Of a stretch of 64,000 nt of DNA, positions 19,121 through 23,079 are shown piece by piece. The notes under the pieces were generated by a model that was not told the origin of the DNA, did no database searches, and saw only the letters and a program-made list of their open reading frames with translations. Source of the stretch: Candidatus Iainarchaeum sp. (lineage in GTDB: Archaea > Iainarchaeota > Iainarchaeia > Iainarchaeales > GCA-2688035); the NCBI GenBank assembly GCA_017610205.1, contig JAFCCL010000007.1, positions 32,001 to 96,000 of the forward strand. The letters are read 5' to 3'. Position 1 is the first letter of the stretch. Every line of letters begins with the position of its first letter. The translations under genes and the position numbers were made by a program.

Positions 19121-19124
19121 TAAC

Positions 19125-19204
19125 ATGAAAGCGAATGAAATGAGCATGTGCCATAGCGAACAAAGTGAGCGTATGGCACCCGCATTCAAGGGGCGTGACC
19201 TTGC

Positions 19205-19211
<7 letters not shown>
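19125..19211 (+). repeat. Two tandem-GA triloop hairpins inside a 28-codon mini-ORF between rpoB' and rpoA'
   Basis: GCGAATGAAATGAGC (19131-19145) and GTGCCATA-GCGAACAAAGTGAGC-G-TATGGCAC (19148-19179); [31 protein letters not shown] ends in TGATG. Confidence 0.65.

Positions 19212-23079
<3,868 letters not shown>

Follow-up and report, generated by a model that had tools for sequence, protein, structure and literature searches.

Why does the RNA polymerase operon of a 1.37-Mb archaeal genome hold two hairpins and a mini-ORF between rpoB' and rpoA', at a junction that in the closest relatives reads TGA, 4 nt, and ATG? A first-pass annotation of this DNA had proposed a repeat that inserts at gene junctions of essential operons and is tolerated because its open frame keeps translational coupling. 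Our comparison with related genomes suggests that the spacer is probably an 80-nt non-autonomous insertion element, belonging to a family of hairpin modules dispersed in a small-genome (DPANN) archaeal family. The window, that is, the whole stretch of 64,000 nt that was analyzed, corresponds to positions 32001 to 96000 of contig C13 of the assembly (24 contigs, 37% G+C, 92% complete; here called the focal genome). Relatives are coded G001 to G021, public sequencing runs X1 to X3, loci L106 to L204, and contigs C2 to C43.

Structure of the rpoB'-rpoA' spacer

Direct reading placed the hairpins H1 and H2, both other copies in the window, and the 28-codon ORF where the first-pass annotation had them (Table 1). 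All three copies in the window lie on the + strand, as it had stressed; this is uninformative, because the genes flanking all three are also on the + strand.

Table 1. Features of the window and related elements in other genomes. Positions refer to the window unless a genome is named.
Feature	Position	Strand	Basis or remark
tRNA-Asp leader hairpin, 31 nt	8176-8206	+	Read directly; 23 nt 5' of tRNA-Asp
tRNA-Asp	8230-8302	+	
rpoB' (RNA polymerase subunit B', Rpb2 domains 4-7)	17288-19120	+	Pfam; gene end conserved in relatives
Inserted element, 80 nt	19125-19204	+	80-nt gap in MAFFT alignment with G004, G002, and G003
Mini-ORF, 28 codons and TGA	19125-19211	+	ORF translation; no Pfam family
H1, GC-GA-AT-GAA-AT-GA-GC, tandem G.A pairs and GAA triloop	19131-19145	+	Read directly
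H2, GTGCCATA-GC-GA-AC-AAA-GT-GA-GC-G-TATGGCAC	19148-19179	+	Read directly
3' module, last 25 nt of the element	19180-19204	+	
rpoA' (Rpb1 domains 1-5)	19205-21817	+	Pfam; start inferred from relatives
SecY	50768-52132	+	Pfam
Second insertion, 90 nt, three hairpins	52143-52232	+	Alignment with G002 and G004; in frame
Hairpin GCGAACGGAGTGAGC within the secY-side insert	52155-52169	+	Read directly
EMC3/YidC-like membrane protein	52321-52872	+	Pfam
3'-module element, dUTPase-like/aIF5B-like junction	G003, C43		
3'-module element, PheS-like/PheT-like junction	G002, C23		
3'-module element, rpo junction	G007		
3'-module element, another junction	G015, C2		

The ends of the two genes define the spacer. 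The stop codon of rpoB' lies at 19118-19120, and the last bases of the gene, AAGGCGTGA, provide a native SD-like site to any frame that opens at the ATG that follows. Across 30 related genomes the N terminus of rpoA' reads ATG-YTN-xxx-AAA-AAA and the second ATG is missing in some; rpoA' therefore starts at the ATG at 19205 and not at the one at 19211. The mini-ORF was correctly described as starting 4 nt past the rpoB' stop (ATG at 19125), as having 28 codons, and as ending in TGATG, its TGA at 19209-19211 overlapping the ATG at 19211. That ATG is not the start of rpoA', as had been assumed, so that the mini-ORF stop falls 7 nt within rpoA'.

The boundary of the element is ambiguous by 3 to 4 nt, with CATG present at both junctions. 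Its first hairpin, H1, has no predicted stability alone (0 to -0.6 kcal/mol with nearest-neighbor energies), and covariation, in which the inner pair switches from AT/AT to AC/GT between copies, is the one line of support for it. H2 consists of a lower stem of 8 bp, a bulged G, and the apex GC-GA-AC-AAA-GT-GA-GC, and it is predicted to fold far better than shuffled sequences (z = -4.0 as DNA and -4.1 as RNA). K-turns and K-loops contain tandem sheared G.A pairs beside a 3-nt bulge or closing a terminal loop. Such an L7Ae-binding motif was considered and rejected: the hairpins have no 3-nt bulge, the G.A pairs stand 2 Watson-Crick pairs away from the triloop, and there is no Rfam match. At gathering thresholds Rfam found only tRNAs in the whole window, and matches in 19000-19350 were at chance level alone.

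The element ends in a 3' module with a hairpin of CAAGG and CCTTG (19187-19203), the loop of which presents the SD-like sequence GGGGCGTGA (19190-19198) 6 nt 5' of the rpoA' ATG. SD likeness was judged from the enrichment of 5-mers 5' of ORFs, the assembly being without a 16S rRNA gene. The most enriched 5-mers 5' of 781 long ORFs are GGTGA, GTGAT, AGGTG, and GGAGG (5.7- to 7.1-fold), and the GTGA of the module, at -10 to -7, falls in the range where SD-type 5-mers peak.

Filled and empty alleles

From the rpoB' stop to the second ATG the focal genome has 90 nt, versus 10 to 12 nt in five of the six other genomes of the genus (G002, G004, G003, G001, and G005), the two closest of which share 93% RpoB' identity. 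The first four are the same-genus relatives nearest by RpoB' identity. The sixth congener, G006, has an unrelated 57 nt at this junction, and the element is missing in most of the 30 genomes compared. Public sequencing runs, in any one of which at most a fraction of 0.11 of the sampled words was present, contained both alleles: one contig of X1 and two contigs of X2 join 19122 to 19203/19205, skipping 80 to 82 nt, and one contig of X3 runs through the element into rpoA'. The presence of both alleles on contigs of unrelated runs argues against an assembly artifact. Empty sites, for which the first-pass annotation had asked one to look in relatives, were thus found in G002, G004, G003, G001, X1, and X2. 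These alignments show that the spacer holds an insertion missing from the closest relatives.

The same data bear on the view that the spacer encodes a genuine small protein or that the RNA polymerase operon has in it a native, conserved structure for its regulation. Its location in an essential operon, the presence of an ORF, and the similar peptide after secY would fit such a view, which is contradicted by the empty alleles in five of six congeners and in most of the 30 genomes; moreover, the peptide belongs to no family and its residues change freely between copies. We regard this explanation as most improbable.

A gain cannot be distinguished from repeated precise loss; a homologous element is also present at the rpo junction of G007, which belongs to another genus. 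Duplication of the flanks at the two inserts of the window was not significant (p = 0.05 and 0.10).

A dispersed hairpin with a conserved apex

Is the hairpin repeated elsewhere? The genome-wide motif search against simulated controls that had been suggested as a check gave a divided answer in the focal genome. The strict 15-mer GCGAAYNNNRTGAGC was weakly enriched, with 3 occurrences versus 0.43 expected (maximum of 2 in 30 simulations), and the loose architecture C-GA-2bp-N3/4-2bp-GA-G was not (27 versus 23.8 ± 4.9 in 30 Markov-1 simulations). A blastn-short search with the three copies of the window found no further similar copy in this genome. A generic scan for stem-GA-stem-loop-stem-GA-stem (187 matches versus 115 for AG/AG) was set aside as an unusable statistic dominated by AT-rich TTGAAA words. 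Enrichment within the focal genome is weak; the convincing support is comparative.

The pattern GCGAAYNNNRYGAGC was counted 38 times in the 23 genomes that make up this family's sample, versus 18 times for a reversed control. Matches that fit the hairpin lie mostly outside long ORFs, and eight of the nine with inner bases unfit for a hairpin lie inside ORFs of at least 132 aa. Twelve long-stem hairpins align without gaps, their apex conserved and their stems different; pairing holds in 95.4% of the cells, both partners vary in 10 of the 13 pairs, and none of 500 shuffles reaches this. Since these hairpins were selected for a stem, the 95.4% pairing is partly circular, but the covariation is not. 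Covariance model R1, built from the 12 hairpins and used with a cutoff of E ≤ 0.01, has 83 matches in 12 of the 23 family genomes, with 28 in G021, 13 in G013, 9 in G008, 8 each in G020 and G012, and a single one, H2 (E = 1.5e-7), in the focal genome. At the level of the phylum, 15 of 215 genomes together contain 27 copies of a 17-mer with the apex (reversed control, 5 copies), and 20 of the 27 belong to the family of the focal genome. Judged by these alignments and counts, the main hairpin is a dispersed repeat with covarying stems and a conserved apex of putative tandem G.A pairs and a triloop.

A separate observation concerns metagenome contig L203, the last ~150 nt of which, up to the contig end, form a tandem array of a 69-nt unit with an H2 hairpin.

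Hairpin modules at tRNA genes

The copy before tRNA-Asp has a 10-bp stem and a flipped apex, T-GA-GC-AAA-GC-GA-A. With z = -6.0 as RNA it extends the range spanned by H2 and this hairpin, as RNA or DNA, to -4.0 to -6.0 relative to shuffles. The leader varies among relatives of the same genus, and G014, G015, and G008 have homologous cassettes of H1, H2, and H3 in the leaders of their tRNA-Asp genes.

Could the main role of the cassette then be at the RNA level, for instance as a stabilizer in 5' leaders or between cistrons or as a site of processing or protein binding, with the tRNA leader as its home? Copies at operon junctions would then persist through their effect on mRNA stability or on the B'/A' ratio, and their mobility would be incidental. 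H1-H2-H3 cassettes do stand between promoter and tRNA, not only in the three tRNA-Asp leaders but also on contig C24 of the focal genome and at L204; the combination of a conserved apex with covarying stems resembles that of a recognized RNA structure, and the strong copies in the focal genome are all sense to the adjacent gene. We nevertheless consider this explanation unlikely. The closest relatives lack the cassette in both operons and have different tRNA-Asp leaders, the cassette belongs to no Rfam family, and without a 3-nt bulge it is not a K-turn or K-loop. Furthermore, the orientation is mixed: of 30 R1 matches, with calls resting on raw ORFs and not on gene predictions, 25 have an upstream ORF of at least 150 aa, which is on the same strand in 16 cases and on the opposite strand in 9, and 5 of the 30 are antisense to both neighbors. 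An insertion element remains our preferred reading.

tRNA genes of the focal genome also carry trailers (C16:89300-89760 on the minus strand and C20:10200-10480) that begin 2 to 3 nt past the tRNA and contain the hairpin ACCCATT-GA-GC-loop-GC-GA-AATGGGT. The trailers end in a copy of the last 20 nt of the tRNA, which is exact or has one change at tRNA-Ala and is degenerate on C20. The trailer of tRNA-Ala consists of two tandem 95-nt units.

Several further observations were made at tRNA genes. The leader cassette on C24 (5080-5150) of the focal genome is nearly identical to the tRNA-Asp leader of G015, a member of another genus, and precedes a different tRNA. Long tRNA-Asp introns made of AAGCCTTTTC-type hairpin modules were seen at L106, L107, L110, and L112 (G008, G011, G015, and G014), measuring about 65 to 90 nt where both halves were matched (G008, G011, and G014). 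The tRNA-Asp gene of the focal genome and the whole-gene-matched copies of the same genus (G002, G003, and G004) are intronless. Within the window, a tRNA with a 45-nt intron-like insert lies at 55883-55999; it matches Rfam with 35.7 bits and is missed by ARAGORN.

Related elements at other operon junctions

The 3' module, consisting of an SD-like GGGGYGTGA in a hairpin loop followed by ATG, is common to elements at non-orthologous junctions (Table 1). The genes flanking the G003 and G002 elements are what we take to be dUTPase-like and aIF5B-like, and PheS-like and PheT-like, genes, named by eye from motifs. The occurrence of the same module at differing junctions shows that the SD-like site is part of the element itself and was not copied from the target. 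The focal genome is empty at the G003 site, where it has a 16-nt spacer, and at the G002 site, where it has a TAATG overlap, and in turn G002 and G003 are empty at the rpo junction. Three genomes of one genus hence each have one such element, each at a different operon junction, which is the pattern expected of a mobile element.

Inserts between cotranscribed genes were seen at rpoB'/rpoA', at S15 and its next gene, at PheS/PheT-like, and at dUTPase-like/aIF5B-like junctions, with an ATG at the 5' junction. In three of the four resolved inserts an ATG stands on both sides; the fourth is flanked by TGG. This fourth insert follows secY. A conserved short ORF separates secY from the EMC3/YidC-like gene, and the insert stands just 3' of the ATG(G) of this ORF; TGG leaves the boundary of the insert ambiguous, and the insert folds with z = -2.5 as RNA. 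The distance from secY to the next gene is 188 nt in the focal genome versus 99 nt in G002 and G004.

Such a distribution might arise without transposition if the sequences spread and are lost by recombination or replication errors, including template switching at hairpins, tandem duplication or deletion between short repeats, and gene conversion between populations. Some copies do come with long direct repeats at their flanks or with tandem arrays: at the S15 junction of G015 a 31-nt repeat of the end of the gene, the spacer, and ATGA, the 95-nt tandem units behind tRNA-Ala, the array on L203, and three tandem repeats resembling ribosome-binding sites at the S15 junction of the focal genome. 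In addition, no transposase flanked by the hairpin was found among 27 Y1 loci. We give this explanation a slim chance, for it would have to account for the same 3' module with different internal hairpins at three unrelated junctions, placed exactly from ATG to ATG. Such placement needs a site-selective process or very strong selection. Nor do the two copies of the window show significant duplication of their flanks. We favor an inserting element over errors of replication or recombination.

The S15 junction of the focal genome merits a remark of its own. At the S15 gene end on C19 (about 1242-1320) the spacer holds three tandem GAATTGTGGTTAAA-like copies of a ribosome-binding site and is free of hairpins; these repeats may be the footprint of an earlier insertion and loss.

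An open frame bridges the junction

Why would an insertion in an essential operon be tolerated? The mini-ORF starts at the position that is the rpoA' start in the empty alleles, and the homologous frame is open in G003, G002, G007, and G015. All 10 junction inserts examined (7 of 7 and 3 of 3) have an open frame that begins with an ATG located at the upstream stop or overlapping it, and that closes at the downstream start or inside the SD region of that start. Each copy leads up to the ATG of the next gene, before which an SD-like sequence stands. These 10 cases are not independent, since they share sequence. The ends of the inserts overlap the next gene by ATGA in G003, by TAATG in G002, and by TGATG or 7 nt in the focal genome, and the rpo junction of G015 has two mini-ORFs that are chained through an ATGA overlap.

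The peptide itself seems to be of little consequence. The likeness of SEQSERMA to CERSEHMA, which the first-pass annotation had pointed out, is indeed there after secY, but it reflects nucleotide homology and not a conserved protein. From copy to copy the 3' module differs in ways that replace residues (F by L and R by C). Pfam assigns no family to the mini-peptide, and its conservation is no greater than the nucleotide identity gives. The frames are open and the peptides are not conserved, which suggests that the open frame matters and not the peptide.

A recent review (PMC12548453) describes coupling in Haloferax as largely lost beyond about 30 nt. We hypothesize that the element lands directly 3' of a start codon, and that this ATG, together with the native SD, would then start the mini-ORF. 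Ribosomes translating the mini-ORF would melt the hairpins and terminate on top of the downstream start, and the element's own SD in the hairpin loop, along with the regenerated ATG, would restart translation at rpoA'. In this way the coupling of B' and A' could be preserved across 84 nt, a distance otherwise too great for it. The central proposal of the first-pass annotation, an insert tolerated at junctions of essential operons because it keeps coupling, is supported by the empty alleles, the non-orthologous copies, and the open frames in 10 of 10 inserts.

Candidate mobilizing enzymes

No mobilizing enzyme had been visible in the window. Outside it, the focal genome contains HUH genes, represented by seven Y1_Tnp matches, but they lack the flanking motif that had been envisaged; matches of the TnpB type in this genome number four. 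Among 27 Y1 loci of the family none has an R1-type hairpin within ±1.5 kb (best E = 0.21, filters off), and the suggested relationship to REP and RAYT found no support. Across 23 genomes, which are incomplete metagenome-assembled genomes, hairpins and Y1 genes do not co-occur: seven have both, five only R1 hairpins, five only Y1 genes, and six neither. Searches for a reverse transcriptase, Cas1, or an IS110 transposase in the 92%-complete focal genome found none. This genome has one GIY-YIG gene (C14) and DDE_Tnp_1 genes; among the strong tandem-G.A hairpins listed by a scan of the genome, none was near these genes.

We tentatively propose that the element moves as single-stranded DNA, mobilized in trans by a Y1 (HUH) transposase that would insert it 3' of a short ATG-containing target without a long duplication. 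This is the weakest step of the proposal, and we think it less likely than not. It is supported by the seven Y1_Tnp matches, by an IS200-like element with a tandem-G.A right end, by an insertion within a triloop, and by the ATG flanks of three of four inserts. Against it speak the absence of R1 hairpins at Y1 loci, the lack of co-occurrence, the differing ends of the commoner IS200-type element, and the TGG flank after secY. The 20- to 31-nt flanking repeats of some copies oppose it too, since HUH transposition makes no long direct repeats.

The IS200-like element in question occurs in two copies of ~690 bp (C10:41991-42681 and C16:~52137-52833) that are 89% identical. Directly 3' of the stop, its right end has the apex C-GA-AC-CCAA-GT-GA-G and then a GNA-triloop hairpin. 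The commoner IS200-type element has unrelated ends, which do not abut ATG. Beyond this, the divergent Y1 protein of the two-copy element has N-H-A-H instead of D-H-V/I-H, its tyrosine motif is of the YIRSQQAHH type, and the left end of the element is a hairpin with a bulged T. The triloop insertion was observed at L156 (G020:C35:4004-4074), where a family hairpin has a 40-nt module inserted inside its triloop.

No enzyme found explains both the landing at start codons and the copying of 20 to 31 nt of gene ends, so an undescribed mechanism may act. More doubtful than the HUH step, but still conceivable, is a mobile element of archaea that targets translation starts: it would land in highly expressed operons, exactly 3' of a start codon, and at tRNA borders, carry a portable ribosome-binding site, and insert by an undescribed mechanism acting on DNA or through RNA.

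Relation to known elements

The closest functional counterpart is the MIRU (mycobacterial interspersed repetitive unit). MIRUs are operon repeats of 40 to 100 bp; they insert at start codons, and an ORF inside them is coupled with the host gene (Supply et al. 1997, as cited in PMC3184786 and PMC12548453). Both kinds of repeat lie inside operons, appear to be mobile, have filled and empty sites and very short direct repeats, and insert at start codons, and in both the ends of the internal ORF overlap or abut the neighboring genes so that coupling is kept. Here we found an insert at the start codon between cotranscribed genes, an abutting internal ORF, and filled and empty sites. The element differs from MIRUs in its archaeal host, its strand-asymmetric tandem-G.A/triloop hairpins, and its own SD-like site; it also shares modules with tRNA leaders, trailers, and introns and has a low copy number (one R1 match in the focal genome). 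We thus class it as MIRU-like in function and do not file it as a member of the MIRU family, a sequence relationship across domains being unexpected. MIRUs in mycobacteria are reported with the same solution, which looks like convergent evolution across domains.

What appears to be new in the present case is that the element brings a ribosome-binding site with it, that mini-ORFs are coupled in a chain, and that a single genus has both filled and empty alleles at three junctions. Tiny, gene-dense archaeal genomes would seem to tolerate selfish DNA in essential operons for RNA polymerase, ribosomal proteins, SecY, and an aminoacyl-tRNA synthetase, and the bridging ORF, together with a ribosome-binding site of its own, may be the price that the element pays for its position. 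Such inserts offer natural constructs for studies of archaeal termination-reinitiation coupling, and their presence or absence provides markers for strain typing in uncultured DPANN populations. The defined hairpin with tandem G.A pairs and a triloop also allows a binding partner to be sought. Our literature search found no description of such elements in DPANN archaea, although the supplementary tables of a MITE census may list relatives; a passage of that census (PMC11602168) mentions, without detail, a high MITE density in one Woesearchaea genome.

In form the element resembles other repeats. With REP/BIME and REPIN sequences it shares short palindromic hairpins that in some genomes are dispersed in many copies (28 in G021, versus one R1 match in the focal genome), covarying stems, both orientations, and the presence of Y1 genes in the genome. 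Unlike the REP/REPIN-RAYT system, the hairpins flank no Y1 gene, do not co-occur with Y1 genes, and have no visible GTAG or CGTC tag, and the element here sits within operons as a translated bridge. For Archaea, PMC6006769 reports Y1 proteins of the IS200 type only. IS200/IS605-derived PATEs are similar in having hairpins of one strand without terminal inverted repeats, and the ATG flanks of three of four inserts, the module in a single-stranded loop, and the IS200-like elements of the genome, one with a tandem-G.A right end, would fit them. A PATE shares its ends with full-length elements, whereas the ends here are not homologous to those inspected, the only likeness being the apex in the right end of the C10/C16 element, and some copies have 20- to 31-nt flanking repeats. 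The element matches MIRUs point by point in function and resembles REP/REPIN or IS200/IS605-derived hairpin elements in form, and it lacks the link to a transposase that defines the latter.

Rickettsia palindromic elements insert in frame into genes, and the secY-side copy is comparable as an in-frame 90-nt insertion into an existing short ORF. The target differs, being a coupling ORF of roughly 31 codons and not a protein of known function. Rickettsia palindromic elements are listed in PMC3184786.

This short ORF (52139-52321) is found family-wide, with ~31 codons in relatives and 60 in the focal genome owing to the insert. Its stop overlaps the ATG of the next gene, and its core resembles a TATA-type promoter. 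It could be a coupling uORF or encode a small protein related to membrane insertion.
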